The notes under the pieces were generated by a model, which searched no databases, had not been told where the DNA came from, and saw only the letters and a list, made by a program, of their open reading frames with translations. A program made the translations under genes and the position numbers. A stretch of 36,166 nucleotides of DNA. Origin: a virus. The stretch is taken from positions 1 through 36,166 of the IMG/VR virus record IMGVR_UViG_3300045988_053152, one strand, 5' to 3'. Shown in pieces: positions 1,051-36,166 of this stretch (position 1 is the stretch's first letter; every line of letters starts with the position of its first letter).

Positions 1051-1104
1051 CATTTTGAGAGAAAACTTTATGAATTTAACTACGATTAACGTTTCGGGGT
1101 GGGG

Positions 1105-1144
1105 TGTCACATGCGAAAACAAATGTCACAGAGGAATTTGACAC
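1105..1144. promoter_or_regulatory. Cluster of TGTCACA boxes upstream of P1
   Basis: TGTCACA at 1105-1111 and 1124-1130 (19 nt apart), with an inverted TGACAC at 1139-1144. The same box recurs through both boundary modules. Confidence 0.35.
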
Positions 1145-1446
1145 TTAATGCGCTGATAATCATAGGGTTTAGGCCTAATGTCACAAATGCACAGATGTTT
1201 TCCTATTAGTATAAAACAAGAATATGTGATATACGATTTGATATATATTAACATTTAAAGCCCTTTTTAATTTTATCTCTATATAATATATCTATGACAT
1301 CTATGACATTAGGGTTAAGTACCATTATTTCAACGAGTTAGGCGTCACAGTAAAAAATCTTTAATTAATGCCGCAAAAAGTTTGTAGTCTGGTTATCAAT
1401 GACTTAGACCGCATAAATGAGTGTCACACGTGATTTTTATTGTAAA
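1143..1446. repeat. Boundary module copy A (direct repeat of 19797-20191)
   Basis: Aligned by eye: 1180-1225 vs 19901-19946 (41/46), 1271-1312 vs 20016-20057 (41/42), 1336-1446 vs 20081-20191 (98/111, no indel). No shared ORF. Confidence 0.85.
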
Positions 1447-1451
1447 CATTT

Positions 1452-4460: not shown

Positions 4461-5015
4461 TTATTCGAATTCTGAAATGTCGGCTGCTGCCGCTTCTGCT
4501 TCTGCTTCTTCTGCGGCCTTCTTTGCTGCTCTAGTAGCTGCGGCCTTCTTTGCGGCTGCGCTGCGTTTTGCTGCGGCAATTTCCTCCTCGGTAGGTTCTG
4601 TTACTTCCGATTCTGTTACTTCCGATTCTGTTACTTCCGGTTCTGTTACTTCCGATTCTGTTACTTCCGGCTCGGTTACTTCCGGCTCGGCCTGTTCCGG
4701 CTCGGCCTGTTCCGGAATAGTGGTAACCACAGCGTCCAGGTCGATAAAGTAATCTTTATATTCCGGGTTCGCCTCCATTAGTTCAATGGCTTTTGCGTCG
4801 TCGCAATTAAATGCGCGATATACTTTCCCGTCCTCGTATGATGTAATCGACAAGTCCGGTTTCATCACATAACGAGTGTGTTTCCCGGTCAAGTACTCAT
4901 TCTCATACCATTGTGCGGCGAACTGTCTGTCAAAACCGCATGAGTCCTCTAACTTTAAATTAGTCATGCGCACACACAGCGCCAAAATCTGTCCAATATC
5001 TTGTAATCTTTCCAT
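4461..5015 (-). CDS. Acidic repeat protein: (E/S)(P/E)EVT pentapeptide repeats plus an Ala/Lys-rich tail. Function unknown.
   Basis: 184-aa ORF with a globular N-terminal ~100 aa, then EPEQAEPEQAEPEVTEPEVTESEVT... encoded by 8 tandem 15-nt units. Confidence 0.7.
   Translation of the reverse strand: MERLQDIGQILALCVRMTNLKLEDSCGFDRQFAAQWYENEYLTGKHTRYVMKPDLSITSYEDGKVYRAFNCDDAKAIELMEANPEYKDYFIDLDAVVTTIPEQAEPEQAEPEVTEPEVTESEVTEPEVTESEVTESEVTEPTEEEIAAAKRSAAAKKAAATRAAKKAAEEAEAEAAAADISEFE
4596..4715. repeat. Tandem repeat, 15 nt x 8 (in frame, inside CDS 4461..5015)
   Basis: ttctgttacttccga-type units at 4596, 4611, 4626, 4641, 4656, 4671, 4686 and 4701, read directly. Confidence 0.9.
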
Positions 5016-19738: not shown

Positions 19739-19746
19739 CAAATATA
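19739..19746 (-). promoter_or_regulatory. Candidate late promoter, -7 box TATATTTG, upstream of terS
   Basis: The reverse complement of caaatata fits TAnnTTTG and lies 31 nt upstream of the terS ATG. The nearest TTTG is only 13 nt upstream, which is atypical spacing. Confidence 0.4.
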
Positions 19747-19796: not shown

Positions 19797-20191
19797 TCAC
19801 TTAACTATCTGATTATCAAGTTATAAGGTTTTTGTGTCATCAATGTCACATATGAATAATGCCACCTAACGTACTGTGGCACAGCGAGTTAACCCCAAAC
19901 GTCACAGATTCACAGATGTTTTCCTATTAGATAAAAACAAGAATATTACTACCTCAATTTAATATCAATTAACCTATACTAATATATATCAATTCACAAT
20001 ATTAATAATCATCTTTTTTATCTCTATACAATATATCTATGACATCTATGACATTAGTACTAACTATAAGTAATTCAGTAAGTTAGGCGTCACAGTAAAA
20101 AATCCTTAATTAATGATGCAAAAAGTTTGTAGTCTGATTATCAATGACTTAAGCGTCGTAAACGAGTGTCAAAGATGATTTTTATTGTAAA
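19797..20191. repeat. Boundary module copy B (direct repeat of 1143-1446, with extra insertions)
   Basis: See the copy A alignment. Copy B carries about 55 extra nt (around 19856-19900) that include TGCCAC-N10-GTGGCA (19860-19881), and a longer AT-rich core (69 vs 45 nt). Confidence 0.85.
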
Positions 20192-20199
20192 GGTAAATT

Positions 20200-20505
20200 A
20201 GTAGAACTTTTGGTCAAAACGTTAGTAAAACAGCCCTTTTCGAGCATTCTCCCAAAAAACTTTTTGCCGAAATGACACCTTATGCATTTTCTCTCAAAAA
20301 ACTTTTTTGTCAAAAGGTTAGTAAACTCGCATTTTCGCCCGAAAAGTACGTTTTTCAAAATGTCGCACAAAAAATTTTGTGGATTTCAATTTAGCATCAA
20401 TTAACTATGTTTACTAACGTTTTGACAAAAAACTTTTCTCTCAAAATCTTTGCTTTATGATAAAAACCACATTCGCAAAGTTTTTTGAGAGAAAAGTTTT
20501 CTAAG
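20200..20505. promoter_or_regulatory. Motif-dense noncoding region (candidate operator array, origin or terminator complex)
   Basis: GTCAAAA(C/G)GTTAGTAAA at 20213-20230 and 20309-20326, and inverted at 20409-20426. TTTTGAGAGAAAAGTTTT-type motif at 20481-20500, inverted at 20287-20308 and 20429-20446, and degenerate at 20246-20266. Confidence 0.6.
20429..20500 (-). terminator. Long inverted repeat (~24-bp stem, 21-nt loop) 5 nt after the last early gene; candidate strong terminator
   Basis: 20429-20453 pairs with 20475-20500 (6 bp, a small internal loop, then 18 bp). On the minus-strand RNA the stem ends in UUUU followed by UUGUC. Confidence 0.45.
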
Positions 20506-27319: not shown

Positions 27320-27357
27320 ATCTTCTAATTTTAAGTGGTTATTTCCTTTTGACACTT

Positions 27358-27388
27358 CAAAGATACGGATACTTTTCGGACTACAAAA
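27358..27388 (-). promoter_or_regulatory. Early promoter P2: -7 TATCTTTG, -33 TTTTG, 18-nt spacer
   Basis: ttgacacttcaaagatacggatacttttcggactacaaaac aligns with P1 and P3. The upstream motif here is GTCAAAACATTA instead of TTTTGAGAGAAAA. Confidence 0.6.
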
Positions 27389-27423
27389 CTTTTAGTCAAA
27401 ACATTAACATTCGTTATACCGTT

Positions 27424-28242: not shown

Positions 28243-28545
28243 TTAGTTGTTGGTTCGCAAAATATTAATATAAACGTCACGAAAGCGACTGCCCAAAACA
28301 GGTACGTTAAAAATGTAAGTATCTTCTTTTTCATATTCGTATGGTATTAATGATCCTGATATTCTATTTTTTATTTTTCTCGCGGATCCGTATCGTGCAC
28401 GGACCCCCGATTTGGCGAGCGCCTCATTAACGATATCCGTGATACAACCGCTTTTTGCTATGTCTGCAATAGCCCCCTGTGAAATCTCCATTGTTACCGT
28501 GGTGTCTTTTCCTCCCAGGGGGCGAAATGTTACTTTAATTTTCAT
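28243..28545 (-). CDS. MKIKVTF-family small protein, long paralog (100 aa)
   Basis: The first ~57 aa align with 28558..28749: MKIKVTF...GKD(T/S)TVTME(I/V)...IAD...C..DI......(R/T)RYG...KI. Confidence 0.6.
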   Translation of the reverse strand: MKIKVTFRPLGGKDTTVTMEISQGAIADIAKSGCITDIVNEALAKSGVRARYGSARKIKNRISGSLIPYEYEKEDTYIFNVPVLGSRFRDVYINILRTNN

Positions 28546-28557
28546 ATACGTATGGTA

Positions 28558-28749
28558 TTATATGTCCAGGTCTTCAATTTTAGCTATATATCCGTATCGT
28601 GTACGGCCCTCTGTTTTGTCGGACGCCTTATCGGCTATGTCCGAGGAACAATATTCTTTTAACAGGTCCGCGATAAGTTCTTGCCGAACCTCCATTGTCA
28701 CCGTTGAGTCTTTTCCTTCCTGGAAGCTAAATGTTACTTTAATTTTCAT
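28558..28749 (-). CDS. MKIKVTF-family small protein, short paralog (63 aa)
   Basis: Tandem paralog of 28243..28545, preceded by the conserved leader cassette. Confidence 0.6.
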   Translation of the reverse strand: MKIKVTFSFQEGKDSTVTMEVRQELIADLLKEYCSSDIADKASDKTEGRTRYGYIAKIEDLDI

Positions 28750-29274: not shown

Positions 29275-29300
29275 ATCTTTTAATTTTAAAGGGTTATTAA
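29275..29300 (-). repeat. Conserved gene-junction/leader cassette, identical to 29064-29089
   Basis: atcttttaattttaaagggttattaa, lying between P3 and the ATG at 29274. Confidence 0.9.
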
Positions 29301-29316
29301 TTTCTTATCGACACTA

Positions 29317-29347
29317 CAAAGATACGGATACTTTTTGAACTACAAAA
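29317..29347 (-). promoter_or_regulatory. Early promoter P3: -7 TATCTTTG, -33 TTTTG, 18-nt spacer
   Basis: 29304-29327 is identical to 1007-1030 (24 nt), and ttttgaactacaaaac is identical to P1. Upstream lies TTTTGAGAAAAAAAACTTT, with the inverted repeat CTACAAA...TTTGTAG. Confidence 0.6.
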
Positions 29348-29487
29348 CTTTTTGAGAAAAAAAACTTTGTAGATTTAACATAAATAAAGAAAAGGAAACG
29401 TTTCGCAACGTCTCCCCTCTGAACTGTAAACCCCTTAAATTAGTAGTTGATTGAAATGAAATTGAGTAGTATTTGATTCTCTCTTTG

Positions 29488-29496: not shown

Positions 29497-31881
29497 TTAT
29501 TCTTTCGGGATATCCGTGCCCACTCGCCTATAAATTAGCTGCCGCCCGTAAAGTTTTAGCCGGGCCTGTTTACCGCGCTTCCACCCCTTAAGAGATTTCA
29601 ATGCATTGGCAATCTCCCGGCCCTTCGCGGTTGTGTAATCTTCTTTCTTCCGGCCTAACGCCTCGGTCCACACCTCGATAAGGCTGCATGTGTCCTTGCG
29701 CACCGTCCCGACCTCGCCCAAATCACCGTTAAGAAAGTCCAGGCGTTGAGGCAGAAACCTATCTTCATAGTCCGCCGGGAACAATCTATCTAGGTAGTCC
29801 TCTATCAGACCCTGTAACGGCGTGCGCTCTGTAAATTCGTCCCTCATTCCGCCTGCTATCATTTCGGCCTCATCGGACAATGTAAGCGCCTCGCCAAATA
29901 TATAGGCGTTCATGGCTTCCGCCCAAAGCTGGTCTACGATAGCGTCGAATTGCGGCTCAAAGATAACATGTGTTTTCTTCACGCGCCTAACGGCTACCGG
30001 GAAAAATCGGCGGTTACCTGTTGCGTCTTTCAGAAACTCATCATCATTCGTGGAGCCGAAAAACACGCATTGTCTTTGGTGCGTCTTAACGCGTCGGGCA
30101 TATGCGCCTCTGTACGTATCTTCGCGCTTTGAAATGAAGTTCTTAACCGCCTCGACATCGGAACGCCTCAACGCGGATAACTCGGCTAGCTCCACGAGCC
30201 ACGCGAATTGTATAGCTTCGTATGACTCTTTGCCGGAAAGACTCGTTAACGAGTCGTTAAACCAGCCCTTTGAAAGACGCTGTATTAACGTGGACTTTCC
30301 GACACCCTGTTCGGAGTAAAATACCAGGGCGGTGTCAAACTTGGTGCCGGGCTTGTAAATGCGCGTAACGGCAGCCAATAGCATTTTGCGGAATGCCTCC
30401 CTTGTATACGCGTTATCCTCGGCCCCCATGTATTCGATTAAAAACGTATCAATACGTTCTACACCGTCCCATGTAAGAGATTCCAGGTAATTTTTTATCG
30501 GGTGGAACGCGTTATCACTGCTCACCTGTTCGATAGCGTCATTTAGCTTTGCATCATTATATATACCGTGCAACCGCTCTATCCGACCCTTAATAATTGA
30601 TACGTCCGTGTCGGTGATAAGGTCGCCTTTTTTGCTCCCCTTGCAAGTAAAGGAAGGCCGGGTAAACACGATAGTTTCCTTTAACATGTCATAGGCTAGC
30701 AGTCCATTTAATAACGGGTCCGATTTAAATGCGTTGATAAAGTTGTTGACGGTTACCTGCTTGTTCCCCTTTCCGTCCAGGTCCCAAACCAAATCGGTTA
30801 TGTCCTCGGCGCTGTCTGACTTGGTGTCATCTCCGTAATCGTCGAAGTCGTTTAAATCGGCATCCGGCGTAATCAAGTCCTTAACACAGTATTTATCTTC
30901 GCAAACCAGCTTGTTCATTGCCTTCGTGCTGTCCTCTTTACCCAGGTGCCCGAACTTGTGCACACGTACAAGGTCGTAGGCGTTATAGGCGTGCCCGTCT
31001 GATATCGGGTCGGTGGAGTGGTACGAGAAGCAGTACAAACCGTCAAACACTATCATTCCGCCTACGCTTTGCCCGGCCTTGTAGGTGTAACGGTCGGTTC
31101 CCTGGTAAACATCGTACACGTCCGACAGATACTTTTCTATGGCTTCCTGCACGGTGTACGCCCGGCAGAACGCGCCCACCAGGCCGGACTTTTCGCGGGG
31201 GTTCTGCGCCATTGCCTTATTCACAATCGCGCGGGTCTCTTTCTCCGTGTCGGACTTGAACGCCCAATTATTGATATCCCGCCATTCCTCACCATTGCCG
31301 TACAGCGACAGAAGGTAATCGGCGCTAATCGGTTCGCCCTCTATCACGTCGAACACTTTAGGCTGGTCCGCGGAAAGAGATTGCCAATACATCATTCGTT
31401 CCGCCTGAAAGGTCGTAGGGTCGAACAAGTCCACGCCTATCAACTCGGCAACCTTACGCGCCGCGGCTTCGTACTGCACGGGGTCTTGTACCTCATCAGC
31501 GAATGGCATGATAAGGCGGAACCGTCTGGATGTCTCGCGGTCTGAACGTGTGTTATATATTACCGCGGCTACGCCTGGGAACCTAGCTTCAAATTCAACC
31601 GGGAAAAGCTCATCCGCGTAATCTACGTCTAATGTTATCATAGACCTGGATAACACCGCGCTTTTAAGGCGTCTAGCGCCGGAAAGTTCCCCTGCCATAT
31701 ATCCCCCGACATCTTTCAGATTGGCGCGCGCCGTGCGGTCAAGGCGGTCGAACTCGCGCATAGATTCCGGGCTGCGTACCTCTTTACCGAGTCTTTCCAA
31801 AAACCCCTCCCATGTGTATCTGACAGTCGCCCATTTCATTGAGGCGGAACTTCCCGCCACCGACAAAGTATATTTATCCAT
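29497..31881 (-). CDS. Primase-helicase: N-terminal AEP (PrimPol-like) primase plus a C-terminal SF3/D5-VirE-type P-loop helicase
   Basis: 794 aa. MITLDVDYADE is the AEP DxD motif, YSEQGVGKSTL is Walker A, and AWLVELAEL is a Walker B-like motif. Size and order match phage/plasmid primases. Confidence 0.8.
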   Translation of the reverse strand: MDKYTLSVAGSSASMKWATVRYTWEGFLERLGKEVRSPESMREFDRLDRTARANLKDVGGYMAGELSGARRLKSAVLSRSMITLDVDYADELFPVEFEARFPGVAAVIYNTRSDRETSRRFRLIMPFADEVQDPVQYEAAARKVAELIGVDLFDPTTFQAERMMYWQSLSADQPKVFDVIEGEPISADYLLSLYGNGEEWRDINNWAFKSDTEKETRAIVNKAMAQNPREKSGLVGAFCRAYTVQEAIEKYLSDVYDVYQGTDRYTYKAGQSVGGMIVFDGLYCFSYHSTDPISDGHAYNAYDLVRVHKFGHLGKEDSTKAMNKLVCEDKYCVKDLITPDADLNDFDDYGDDTKSDSAEDITDLVWDLDGKGNKQVTVNNFINAFKSDPLLNGLLAYDMLKETIVFTRPSFTCKGSKKGDLITDTDVSIIKGRIERLHGIYNDAKLNDAIEQVSSDNAFHPIKNYLESLTWDGVERIDTFLIEYMGAEDNAYTREAFRKMLLAAVTRIYKPGTKFDTALVFYSEQGVGKSTLIQRLSKGWFNDSLTSLSGKESYEAIQFAWLVELAELSALRRSDVEAVKNFISKREDTYRGAYARRVKTHQRQCVFFGSTNDDEFLKDATGNRRFFPVAVRRVKKTHVIFEPQFDAIVDQLWAEAMNAYIFGEALTLSDEAEMIAGGMRDEFTERTPLQGLIEDYLDRLFPADYEDRFLPQRLDFLNGDLGEVGTVRKDTCSLIEVWTEALGRKKEDYTTAKGREIANALKSLKGWKRGKQARLKLYGRQLIYRRVGTDIPKE

Positions 31882-35824: not shown

Positions 35825-36166
35825 AGGTTTTCCTCAATGTACTTGATAAAGTCGGCGAAATTCTCGGGTGCCAGGGTCGGGAAAGACGATGCCCCGACAT
35901 AGCCGAACGCGTCTTTGACAACCTCCCTACGGCCCTTGTTTAGCGCTTTCATGGCTACGGCCTTAGCCTCTTCCATAGTGTACGTTACCGGTTCCTTAGC
36001 TTGTTCCGGTTCCTTTACGGGTTCCTTAGCTTGTTCCGGTTCCTTTACGGGTTCCTTAGCTTGTTCCACTTCCTTAGGTTGTTCCGGTTCCTTAGGTTGT
36101 TCCGGTTCTGTCTTTACTTCCGGCGCGGCTTTCGTTCTACGTCCGGCGGGTTTTTTAGGTTCTTCC
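35821..36166 (-). CDS. C-terminal part of the junction-spanning CDS (see 1..309)
   Basis: The frame stays open from the window end down to the stop at 35821. The track start at 36069 is an internal GTG. Repeats are TEPEQPKEPEQPKE and (EQAKEPVKEP)x2.5, followed by a ~55-aa C-terminal domain. Confidence 0.7.
   Translation of the reverse strand, partial: EEPKKPAGRRTKAAPEVKTEPEQPKEPEQPKEVEQAKEPVKEPEQAKEPVKEPEQAKEPVTYTMEEAKAVAMKALNKGRREVVKDAFGYVGASSFPTLAPENFADFIKYIEENL
35991..36108. repeat. In-frame tandem repeats: 30 nt x ~2.5, then 18 nt x 2
   Basis: gttccttagcttgttccggttcctttacgg at 35991 and 36021, with a partial copy at 36051. ttccttaggttgttccgg at ~36070 and ~36088. Confidence 0.9.
36112..36166. 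repeat. Terminal 55-bp sequence identical to 1-55
   Basis: See feature 1-55. Confidence 0.95.

Follow-up and report, generated by a model that had tools for sequence, protein, structure and literature searches.

The window, meaning the whole 36,166-nt stretch of DNA analysed, is the circularly assembled 36.1-kb genome of a "cluster alpha" Bacteroides siphovirus. It contains two non-coding modules of about 330 bp each, copies A and B, which lie in direct orientation 18.7 kb apart and are on balance probably two SaPI/PriRep-like replication origins of the iteron/AT-rich-core type. Direct repeats of this size (78-88% identical) invite loss of half the genome, yet the two are always kept, which suggests an essential cis function. 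A sequence-only reading had described the modules as probable cis-acting, protein-binding DNA of origin-like design (iterons plus an AT-rich region); syntenic pairs in relatives, significant clustering of the motif and the lack of a conserved ORF all favour that description.

Two modules at the borders of the late operon

All genes lie on the minus strand, and GC skew is uninformative because one strand holds them all. Two large gaps bracket the late operon. Copy A (about 1105-1449) occupies one of them, where it immediately follows the last late gene (DUF6549, 192 aa; stop at 1452) and lies upstream of the early promoter cassette P1, and copy B (about 19836-20195) occupies the other. A promoter of Bacteroidetes type stands 40-100 nt downstream of each copy; the boxes of P1 and of the putative late promoter are presumably versions of the Bacteroidetes-type consensus. 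The P1 cassette is context and lies outside the repeat common to copies A and B. The 192-aa and 190-aa genes that precede the modules were considered as a duplicated pair and rejected, there being no similarity between them. The host of the modules is a virulent Bacteroides siphovirus from the gut, and the members of cluster alpha are ARB25, SJC01 and HSC01 together with the BC, BO, BK and BT isolates.

The three conserved blocks of the sequence-only reading are reproduced exactly: block 1 (1180-1225 vs 19901-19946, 41/46 identical), block 2 (1271-1312 vs 20016-20057, 41/42 identical) and the ungapped block 3, which forms the left flanks of Table 1. The 28-nt identical run of that reading is found at 1285 and 20030, its GTCACA boxes at 1106, 1125, 1180, 1344 and 1423, and its palindrome TTAATTAA at 1361 and 20106. 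A repeat finder independently picks up the A/B pair as matches of 176 nt (86% identity) and 87 nt (74%). The 23-nt spacer between blocks 2 and 3 does have equal length in both copies, but its sequence is not unrelated as claimed: 12/23 positions are identical between A and B, and 17 of the 18 copies in nine related genomes share the conserved spacer sequence ACTTATAGTTAGTAC, the sole exception being copy A of the window. In the earlier picture of conserved boxes and free spacers, the free spacers are partly an artefact, because just two copies had been compared. Recent duplication had been set aside, correctly, since both copies stand at the same boundaries in related phages. A feature missed in that account is an internal two-fold symmetry, in which arms 1158-1189 and 1298-1329 are 72% complementary.

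The modules are not a coding region, again as first argued. The sole ORF common to both copies has 21 codons on the plus strand (1368-1433 / 20113-20178); A and B differ in it by 7 nonsynonymous changes against 1 synonymous, and 2/18 related copies have lost its ATG. Rfam at gathering thresholds and ARAGORN give no matches. A sigma-70/terminator scanner, which is not designed for Bacteroidetes promoters, detects nothing above shuffled expectation in the modules, and none of the Bacteroidetes -33/-7 boxes matched by hand inside the module is conserved across lineages. There is no reverse transcriptase of a diversity-generating retroelement among the ten proteins scanned, and no variable coding-region repeat is seen.

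Iterons, AT cores and their change between lineages

Both modules are built from one 9-mer iteron, ATCTRTGAC, with about 8-9 iteron-like boxes per module. The TGTCACA boxes and the tandem ATCTATGAC of the sequence-only reading are both present, but they are a single iteron read on opposite strands and not separate motifs. In each module, at least two inverted and at least two direct iterons face an AT core, and further iterons lie in the flanks. The left pair of copy A (1290-1307) is inverted with respect to gene sense, with its ATC ends towards the AT core; the right pair (1180-1196) runs the other way, direct in gene sense, and forms an inverted repeat with 1298-1329. The same plan recurs in the 13 module copies mapped, which cover all iteron classes: left of the AT core stand two or more inverted iterons, right of it two or more direct ones.

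Exact ATCTRTGAC has five matches in the window, 5/5 of them inside the two modules. With at most one mismatch, 12 of 18 matches fall within the modules, which make up 1.9% of the genome. ATCTRTGA occurs 7 times against 0.98 expected (6/7 in modules) and TGATWATCA 3 times against 0.23 expected (3/3 in modules). The enrichment check proposed for TGTCACA gives a divided answer: YGTCAC is not enriched genome-wide (25 vs 24.4 expected), but it is clustered, with 9/25 matches in the modules, all on the same strand.

The AT core of copy A is a candidate DNA-unwinding element. Close relatives differ in its sequence and length, their orthologues being just 62-65% identical, and this identity is lower than that of third codon positions in the flanking genes. 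AT cores measure 85-97 bp in the window copies; their composition is constrained, and their sequence and length are free.

Table 1. Coordinates of the two modules, their parts and associated features in the window
Feature	Position	Strand	Details
Module copy A, whole	1105-1449	-	nhmmer core1 = 1449-1275, core2 = 1248-1139; further iteron-like boxes out to 1105
Conserved left flank, copy A (block 3)	1336-1446	-	98/111 identical to copy B; 87-88% among nine genomes
Iteron-like boxes, copy A left flank	1423-1431; 1395-1403; 1344-1352	-; +; -	
Other boxes, copy A left flank			near-invariant AAGTCRTTGATAAYCAGACTACAAACTTTTTGC; degenerate TGGTTATCA 1390-1398; TTAATTAA 1361-1368
Inner left iteron pair, copy A	1290-1307	+	two exact tandem ATCTATGAC
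AT-rich core, copy A	1205-1289	.	82% A+T vs genome 53%
Inner right iteron pair, copy A	1180-1196	-	ATCTGTGCA 1188-1196, ATTTGTGAC 1180-1188
Right flank, copy A	1105-1162	-	palindromic TGATAATCA 1154-1162; iteron-like CTCTGTGAC 1125-1133; GTGACA box 1105-1113
Early promoter cassette P1	994-1065	-	-7 box TATCTTTG at 1020-1027; repeat family D7, three copies
Module copy B, whole	19836-20195	-	between 190-aa gene (plus 300-nt repeat array) and late promoter / terS
Conserved left flank, copy B	20081-20191	-	TGATTATCA 20135-20143; TTAATTAA 20106-20113
Iteron-like boxes, copy B left flank	20168-20176; 20140-20148; 20089-20097	-; +; -	
Inner left iteron pair, copy B	20035-20052	+	two exact ATCTATGAC
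AT-rich core, copy B	19938-20034	.	81% A+T
Inner right iteron pair, copy B	19901-19917	-	ATCTGTGAA 19909-19917, ATCTGTGAC 19901-19909
Right flank, copy B	19810-19853	-	iteron-like 19845-19853, 19836-19844; TGATTATCA 19810-19818
-7 box (TATATTTG) of putative late promoter, upstream of terS	19739-19746	-	kept in all B copies; context
Primase-helicase gene, candidate trans-acting initiator	29497-31881	-	794 aa; VapE-like helicase domain residues 466-683

A pair of copies at matching boundaries in related phages had been proposed as a check on the modules, and 16/16 complete relatives examined show it. Both copies occupy the same two gaps in eight B. caccae phages, in six phages of B. ovatus, B. 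kribbi and B. koreensis, and in the B. thetaiotaomicron phages BT2 and BT16. Module A is kept in 72 further metagenomic relatives. Exactly two copies are found at the same syntenic sites across lineages with proteins just 47-70% identical, and a flank 25-mer is absent from all 185,579 genomes of bacteria and archaea searched. A search of viral contigs with the degenerate pattern TGTCAWAGATNNMAWAGAT was too loose, returning at least 119 stretches, most apparently unrelated and few later confirmed as relatives.

The iteron differs by lineage, with about six types across the phage family, including ATCTRTGAC, ATCTTT[GTC]AC, ATCTATTAC, ATC[AT]ATGCA and ATCTATCCA; other lineages have up to 14 iterons per module. 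The switch from one type to another is co-ordinated, in that all sites of a module, and both copies, change together. The direct iterons of the flanks carry the same lineage motif, something that arm-to-arm pairing cannot account for. By Smith-Waterman score, A and B of one genome resemble each other much more closely (57-244) than orthologous copies from different lineages do (14-43). Among close family members, conservation of the left flank and left arm (88-92%) does not exceed that of third codon positions in the flanking genes (83-93%), which counts against the origin reading. The AT core and right arm are mosaic alleles common to A and B copies of different phages.

A candidate initiator and comparable origins

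If the modules are origins, both would evolve in concert because one protein must read both. We infer that the modules fire as origins and that the protein binding the iterons is a 794-aa primase-helicase. This protein contains a Pfam VapE-like domain (4e-76) and has PHROG DNA helicase and primase family matches, and it is closely homologous to the SaPI Rep self-loading helicase, its residues 376-713 matching SaPI1 Rep1 (7PDS) with E = 3.4e-77. Its C-terminal domain (about 714-794) evolves fastest and is the most divergent part in every between-lineage comparison. The best PDB match of the domain profile is 7PDS residues 341-458, in the C-terminal domain of that protein, which is co-linear with the helicase match at a marginal E = 0.014. 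The matches listed by a homologue search with the domain are all close relatives (at least 85% identity), and its AlphaFold model is unusable (pLDDT 54). Divergence of the domain is also seen inside a single iteron class (69%, window vs L232), and covariation with the iterons does not single out the primase-helicase because C-terminal divergence follows general phylogeny.

In the proposed mechanism, the primase-helicase, a VapE/Rep-family SF3 self-loading helicase, would recognise the iterons via its C-terminal domain. Two hexamers would then assemble, one per iteron arm, and would melt the AT core. Bidirectional synthesis would start with the phage-encoded PolA, Gp2.5-like SSB and DUF2800 exonuclease from two directly oriented origins, one per late-operon boundary.

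An element of this kind has been described, contrary to the sequence-only reading: in SaPI origins a Rep helicase binds two iteron sets that enclose an AT-rich centre (PMC9371898). Each has 6-12 iterons, with at least two per side in opposite directions, and the iterons are bound by the winged-helix C-terminal domain of Rep (PMC9371898). Rep is believed to load itself there as two hexamers (Qiao et al. 2022, PMC9371898). The phage modules resemble these origins in having two short-iteron sets around an AT-rich centre, with at least two opposed iterons per side in every iteron class here, in an iteron count per module (about 8-9) within that range, and in an iteron sequence that differs between related elements. 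The phage likewise encodes a fused primase and VapE-family SF3 helicase with a variable C-terminal domain. SaPI origins with Rep/PriRep helicases are also said to appear in work by Ubeda from 2007 and 2012.

The two systems differ in other respects. The SaPI origin lies immediately downstream of rep, whereas no iterons are found 3' of the primase-helicase gene (below 29497) and the phage modules are 8-9 kb away on either side. Unlike SaPI, the phage genome has two copies, placed at the late-operon borders. The phage iterons are 9-11 bp long vs 5-6 bp in SaPI, and the phage modules add to the SaPI plan a long flank, conserved over about 110 bp, as well as TGATWATCA as a second palindromic box. 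SaPI is a satellite, whereas the modules belong to a virulent siphovirus and their binding is putative.

P4 has an ori and a crr that are bound by the alpha primase-helicase, a 777-aa protein with a C-terminal origin-binding winged helix. The phage primase-helicase is of similar size, and the two separated cis regions of P4 share the same iteron; P4 ori and crr are not equivalent copies of one module and lie just about 4.5 kb apart. A sequence search with the phage primase-helicase did not detect the P4 alpha helicase, and a literature search found no paper describing P4 crr. HSV oriS/oriL and the SV40 core origin have inverted initiator sites around an AT-rich spacer and an initiator that is a helicase loaded as two opposed assemblies, and the HSV origin is present in more than one copy. 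These are eukaryotic viruses with unrelated or distant proteins and much shorter AT spacers, and the likeness is in mechanism alone. Lambda ori (within gene O) and theta plasmids also place iteron arrays beside an AT-rich unwinding element, and their iteron/initiator specificities diversify among relatives. They differ in that direct iterons lie on one side of the AT region and a dedicated initiator recruits the host helicase; no dedicated initiator gene of this type was found among the phage proteins scanned.

Further points count against the origin reading besides the distance from the primase-helicase gene, the marginal similarity of the C-terminal domain to that of SaPI Rep and its divergence inside one iteron class. 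Two origins are unusual in a 36-kb phage, and the contig family L226 has a stronger iteron array with no outlier protein. Contig 049687 (L226/L133) was considered as a recombinant that changes iteron type and one protein together, and it was rejected on its stronger iteron array and lack of an outlier protein; its iteron specificity is that of the window's class. It is quite unlikely that the modules are a functional pair, and not redundant origins, whose placement around the late operon in direct orientation couples replication with the early/late switch. Should they be, starting at the two borders might selectively over-replicate the structural-gene segment or open it for late transcription; alternatively, binding of the initiator at each of the two modules might draw the genome into a loop that shields early and late transcription from each other. 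Lineage iteron types would in that case be incompatibility groups among co-infecting gut phages.

Cluster alpha siphoviruses are among the commonest cultured human-gut Bacteroides phages, and a literature search found no description of cluster alpha replication or of these modules. If the modules are origins, they would constitute the first cis/trans replication system for cluster alpha, with a defined iteron and a candidate initiator domain. The SaPI-type design of a self-loading helicase plus split iteron origin would then reach from Gram-positive satellites to virulent Bacteroidota phages, in an unusual two-origin layout that evolves in concert. Iteron type can serve as a simple sequence marker to classify cluster alpha phages in metagenomes, and the modules are candidates for phage-dependent replicons or Bacteroides phage engineering. 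From the lineage-specific iterons one would expect co-infecting phages to be incompatible in replication, or to cross-activate one another.

Regulatory, packaging, repeat and RNA readings

A possible but unlikely alternative is that one of two phage proteins, the 62-aa HTH_17 protein or the 190-aa one, is a transcription regulator with the modules as its landing pads. The iteron arrays would be operators, insulators or enhancer-like sites controlling P1, the late promoter and the early/late switch. The promoter close behind each copy suits this role, and any specific binder would give co-ordinated iteron change. The 62-aa protein has a weak HTH_17 match (E = 0.0033, below the Pfam cut-off). 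The 190-aa protein, encoded immediately upstream of the copy-B region, has a small winged-helix-like N-terminal domain (beta-alpha-alpha-beta-beta-alpha; model pLDDT 75.5) with weak local BldC and viral HTH matches. Neither protein has a significant family or fold assignment, however; Pfam, PHROGs and PDB sequence searches gave none for the 190-aa protein, and its model matched just uncharacterised viral proteins. An array of 8-14 sites over 300 bp, in two opposed sets around a long AT core, would be an atypical operator. Other early/middle promoter cassettes (27332-27403, 29291-29362) are without iterons, and the promoters are accompanied by another repeated motif, TTTTGAGAGAAAA.

The use of the modules as pac sites is improbable. 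The small terminase (235 aa) would bind the boxes flanking a bendable AT region and the first cut would be made there, for which P1 pac and SPP1 pacL/pacR are models. Copy B does lie in the classical pac/cos place, just upstream of terS (assigned by phrog_606, E = 1.8e-10, and a weak GP3_package match), and the lack of fixed ends in PhageTerm results for cluster alpha phages would be consistent with headful packaging from a pac site. Boxes around a central region also resemble P1 pac: P1 pac and lambda cosB have short repeated boxes on both sides of a bendable centre, next to terS, that are read by the small terminase. Both of these sites are single-copy, though, with no counterpart to a second module at the other end of the late operon. 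Two equivalent direct sites 18.7 kb apart would be superfluous for headful packaging, for which none are known, and lethal under cos-type packaging. Copy A, at the far end of the late operon, is remote from terS, and the architecture is that of the origins used by the encoded helicase family. A single pac/cos site next to terS with genome ends there was rejected, as every genome has two copies and PhageTerm finds no defined ends.

It is very improbable that the modules are selfish or passive repeats, be they a miniature inverted-repeat element or a stretch of linker homology that results from the exchange of early/late blocks between co-infecting phages and also promotes it. The inverted-repeat arms, the position exactly at gene-block boundaries and the mosaic core/right-arm alleles would fit such an element. 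Against it stand the constant presence of two syntenic copies, even between lineages with distant proteins, the absence of the flank 25-mer from the bacterial and archaeal genomes searched, and the co-ordinated motif switch at 8-14 sites, which is a signature of binding specificity and not of drift. A miniature inverted-repeat transposable element was rejected on the first two of these points. Recombination may well take place at the modules, as a consequence and not as their function.

Least credible of all is action as RNA or ssDNA, with a long hairpin serving as terminator, RNase III site or 3'-end protector: over some 70 nt the arms show about 70% complementarity and the outer box pair CCTAAC / GTTAGG is changed on both sides in three related copies, but pairing is impossible at 250/1296 positions of the arms (19%), the RNAalifold consensus over 350 columns reaches just -7.05 and -13.4 kcal/mol and contains 1 and 3 pairs that covary (structured RNA had already been discounted in the sequence-only reading), there are neither Rfam matches nor terminator-like hairpins with a T-run, and pairing does not explain same-sequence iterons that are also direct in the flanks. 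The excess of G-U-compatible over A-C mismatches in gene sense (88 vs 38) is mostly one shared ancestral difference, GTCATAGAT vs GTCACAGAT.

Genomic setting and anatomy of the paired modules

The window is a circular assembly in which the minus strand carries every long ORF, and gene sense is therefore taken as the minus strand. Repeat analysis found its first and last 55 nt to be identical, an overlap of the kind that assembly of a circular or circularly permuted genome leaves behind and no biological terminal repeat. The same overlap is present in L006. Bacteroides caccae phages BC669P1-3 and BC679P1-5 are ~91% identical to the window, and more distant kin are siphoviruses of B. ovatus, B. 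kribbi, B. koreensis, B. fragilis, and B. thetaiotaomicron; all belong to the 38-kb 'cluster alpha' phages (Hryckowian et al., bioRxiv 10.1101/2020.03.04.977157).

Gene order was taken from Pfam and PHROGs matches and from the annotation of two relatives, BO1 and BKR1. Early promoter P1 is followed by small early genes, including that of a 62-aa weak HTH_17 protein, and then by a DUF2800 exonuclease, a Gp2.5-like SSB, PolA, and the 794-aa primase-helicase. Next come small genes, a SNF2 helicase, a methyltransferase, and finally a 190-aa protein, after which lies gap B. The terS, terL, tail, head, portal, and lysis genes follow and end with a 192-aa DUF6549 protein, and gap A then returns to P1. 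Copy A of the module fills gap A, and copy B takes up the half of gap B nearer the promoter.

Features of the window, with coordinates (slashes separate paired segments)
Feature	Position	Strand	Description
End overlap	1-55 / 36112-36166		identical, 55 nt
Early leader	803-1012	minus	~200 nt, between P1 and first early gene
Upstream ORF in leader	968-1003	minus	11 codons, conserved; MRTPPIVTKRG (MRAPPIVTKGR in BO1)
Promoter cassettes	994-1065 (P1), 27332-27403, 29291-29362	minus	72 nt, three copies; 65-88% identity
Promoter-associated boxes	1053-1065, 29350-29362		TTTTGAGAGAAAA / TTTTGACAAAAAA, just upstream of -33 element
Module copy A	~1105-1449		fills gap A
Arms of copy A	1158-1189 / 1298-1329		right-arm segment 1158-1175
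Replaced stretch	1313-1335		window copy A alone; same length as ACTTATAGTTAGTAC
In-frame tandem repeats	4566-4714, 35985-36110	minus	inside genes; 15 nt (x7) and 30/18 nt
Module copy B	~19836-20195		in gap B
Box array	20192-20505		gap B upstream of copy B; both orientations
Inverted repeat in array	20298-20326 / 20409-20437		29 nt, 93% complementary
Direct repeat	28386-28545 / 28590-28749		160 nt, 72% identity; among small early/middle genes

In gene sense, each module opens with a ~110-nt flank in which three iteron-like boxes of differing orientation accompany a near-invariant stretch, AAGTCGTTGATAATCAGACTACAAACTTTTTGC, and TTAATTAA. The left arm carries the outer box GTGACGCCTAACNCGCTGA and ends in two tandem inverted iterons. 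It is followed by an 85-97-bp core of 81-82% A+T (53% for the genome) and by a right arm in which two tandem direct iterons come first and the mirror-image outer box last. The final part holds more iteron-like boxes together with a TGATWATCA palindrome. The window has five exact ATCTRTGAC matches, all inside the two modules, which also hold 12 of the 18 matches with at most one mismatch and all three TGATWATCA sites (0.23 expected in the window).

The sequence-only reading had described three blocks conserved between the copies; its figures reproduce exactly, and a repeat finder reports the A/B pair independently. Its TGTCACA boxes are real, but these and its tandem ATCTATGAC are not separate motifs, both being ATCTRTGAC(A) on opposite strands. 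It also left out the two-fold symmetry present inside each module. The 23-nt spacer that it called unrelated is so in window copy A only; across nine genomes, 17 of the 18 copies carry ACTTATAGTTAGTAC there. The replacement in window copy A raises complementarity with that copy's own right arm, which hints at sequence exchange between the arms of one module.

Conservation and concerted change among relatives

The expectation that related phages keep both copies at the same gaps was confirmed in 8/8 close relatives, in six BO1/BKR1-lineage phages, and also in BT2 and BT16. Among 80 metagenomic loci retrieved with the DUF6549 gene as anchor, the 72 with enough downstream sequence have an iteron-rich module directly after that gene. 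The iteron is ATCTRTGAC in the window lineage and its sister lineage and ATCTTT[GTC]AC, in up to nine copies, in the BO1 type; further lineages have ATCTATTAC, ATC[AT]ATGCA, or ATCTATCCA. A lineage's version occupies every site of a module, including the flank direct repeats and both inner pairs. The B. thetaiotaomicron-phage lineages (L304, which is BT16; L305, which is BT2; and L277-L302) carry CTATGCACA and CTATCCAC, which match the bacterial DnaA-box consensus TTWTNCACA at 8/9 positions, as against only ~6/9 for ATCTRTGAC; host DnaA might be involved at some modules, or the likeness might be due to chance.

Local alignment scores are 57-244 for A versus B within one genome and only 14-43 for orthologous copies between lineages, and the alignments thus indicate concerted evolution of the two copies. 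In the close family, identity is 88-92% over the left flank and left arm, similar to third codon positions of the flanking genes (83-93%), but only 62-72% over the AT core and right arm, which form mosaic alleles. Slow sequence change among close relatives is thus no basis for assigning function. The functional case rests on deeply conserved architecture, fixed position and copy number, co-ordinated motif change, and retention of a hazardous direct repeat.

Probable replication origin and alternative readings

SaPI Rep proteins are self-loading SF3 helicases whose C-terminal winged-helix domain recognises iterons, and SaPI origins contain 6-12 iterons, at least two per side in opposite directions, with an AT-rich centre (Qiao et al., PMC9371898). 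The window modules share this architecture of opposed iterons on both sides of an AT-rich centre. The 794-aa primase-helicase has a VapE-like domain and, at E = 3.4e-77, matches 7PDS, the solved structure of the SaPI1 Rep1 helicase. In a profile search with its last 115 residues, the best PDB match was the 7PDS C-terminal domain at only E = 0.014, co-linear with the helicase match; in each between-lineage comparison, no part of the protein diverges more than this domain. Taken together, the architecture, the Rep1 homology, and the C-terminal domain make it somewhat probable that each module is a replication origin whose iterons would be read by the primase-helicase. Copies A and B would then be held together in sequence because the same protein must read both. 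Unlike in SaPIs, however, the modules do not adjoin the helicase gene. The C-terminal domain gives marginal evidence and no usable structure model, its covariation with iteron type tracks general phylogeny, and two origins would be unusual in a 36-kb phage.

The main rival, a landing pad for a phage regulator, is unlikely. A promoter lies just downstream of each copy, and the 190-aa protein beside copy B, for which no relatives were identifiable, is modelled with a small winged-helix-like N-terminal domain; the other promoter cassettes, however, lack iterons and have a different repeated motif. A pac site is less likely still: copy B adjoins terS, but the second copy does not fit. Action as RNA is poorly supported and was rejected, as in the sequence-only reading, since the modules have no Rfam match and no terminator-like hairpins, consensus folding of either strand is very weak and shows almost no covariation, and 19% of arm positions are unable to pair. 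A mobile element is likewise poorly supported and was rejected, there being always two syntenic copies and no match to a flank 25-mer in 185,579 bacterial and archaeal genomes. A gene was rejected because, as first noticed, the copies share no credible ORF, and a cos or terminal-repeat end because PhageTerm found neither in cluster alpha phages.

Iteron/AT-core origins served by self-loading helicases are already known. Such origin-like modules in Bacteroides phages appear to be undescribed, as do paired modules bordering the late operon and evolving in concert, the long conserved flank, and the iteron-type series across a phage family.

Promoters, leader, and other repeats

The 72-nt cassettes are presumably early and middle promoters; on the minus strand they have what we take to be promoter boxes of the Bacteroidetes type (-33 TTTG, -7 TAnnTTTG). 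The TTTTGAGAGAAAA / TTTTGACAAAAAA box occurs seven times in the window (1.26 expected), with five of the sites in the gap B array, and it also stands just ahead of the -33 element in two early promoter cassettes. The array, a possible operator for a phage regulator, varies in copy number among relatives, some of which have tandem runs of the motif.

The early leader is the most conserved stretch seen. It hardly changes across three lineages in which protein identity is only 58-70%; in BKR1 the central 130 nt are missing. Three or four short hairpins are present, with a few compensatory changes, and the leader could be a structured RNA or an element of control by a leader peptide. GenBank records annotate a plus-strand protein across it, which is probably spurious. 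The in-frame tandem repeats differ in length among relatives, the 184-aa gene, for example, ranging from 163 to 187 aa. The 160-nt direct repeat suggests a local tandem gene duplication.
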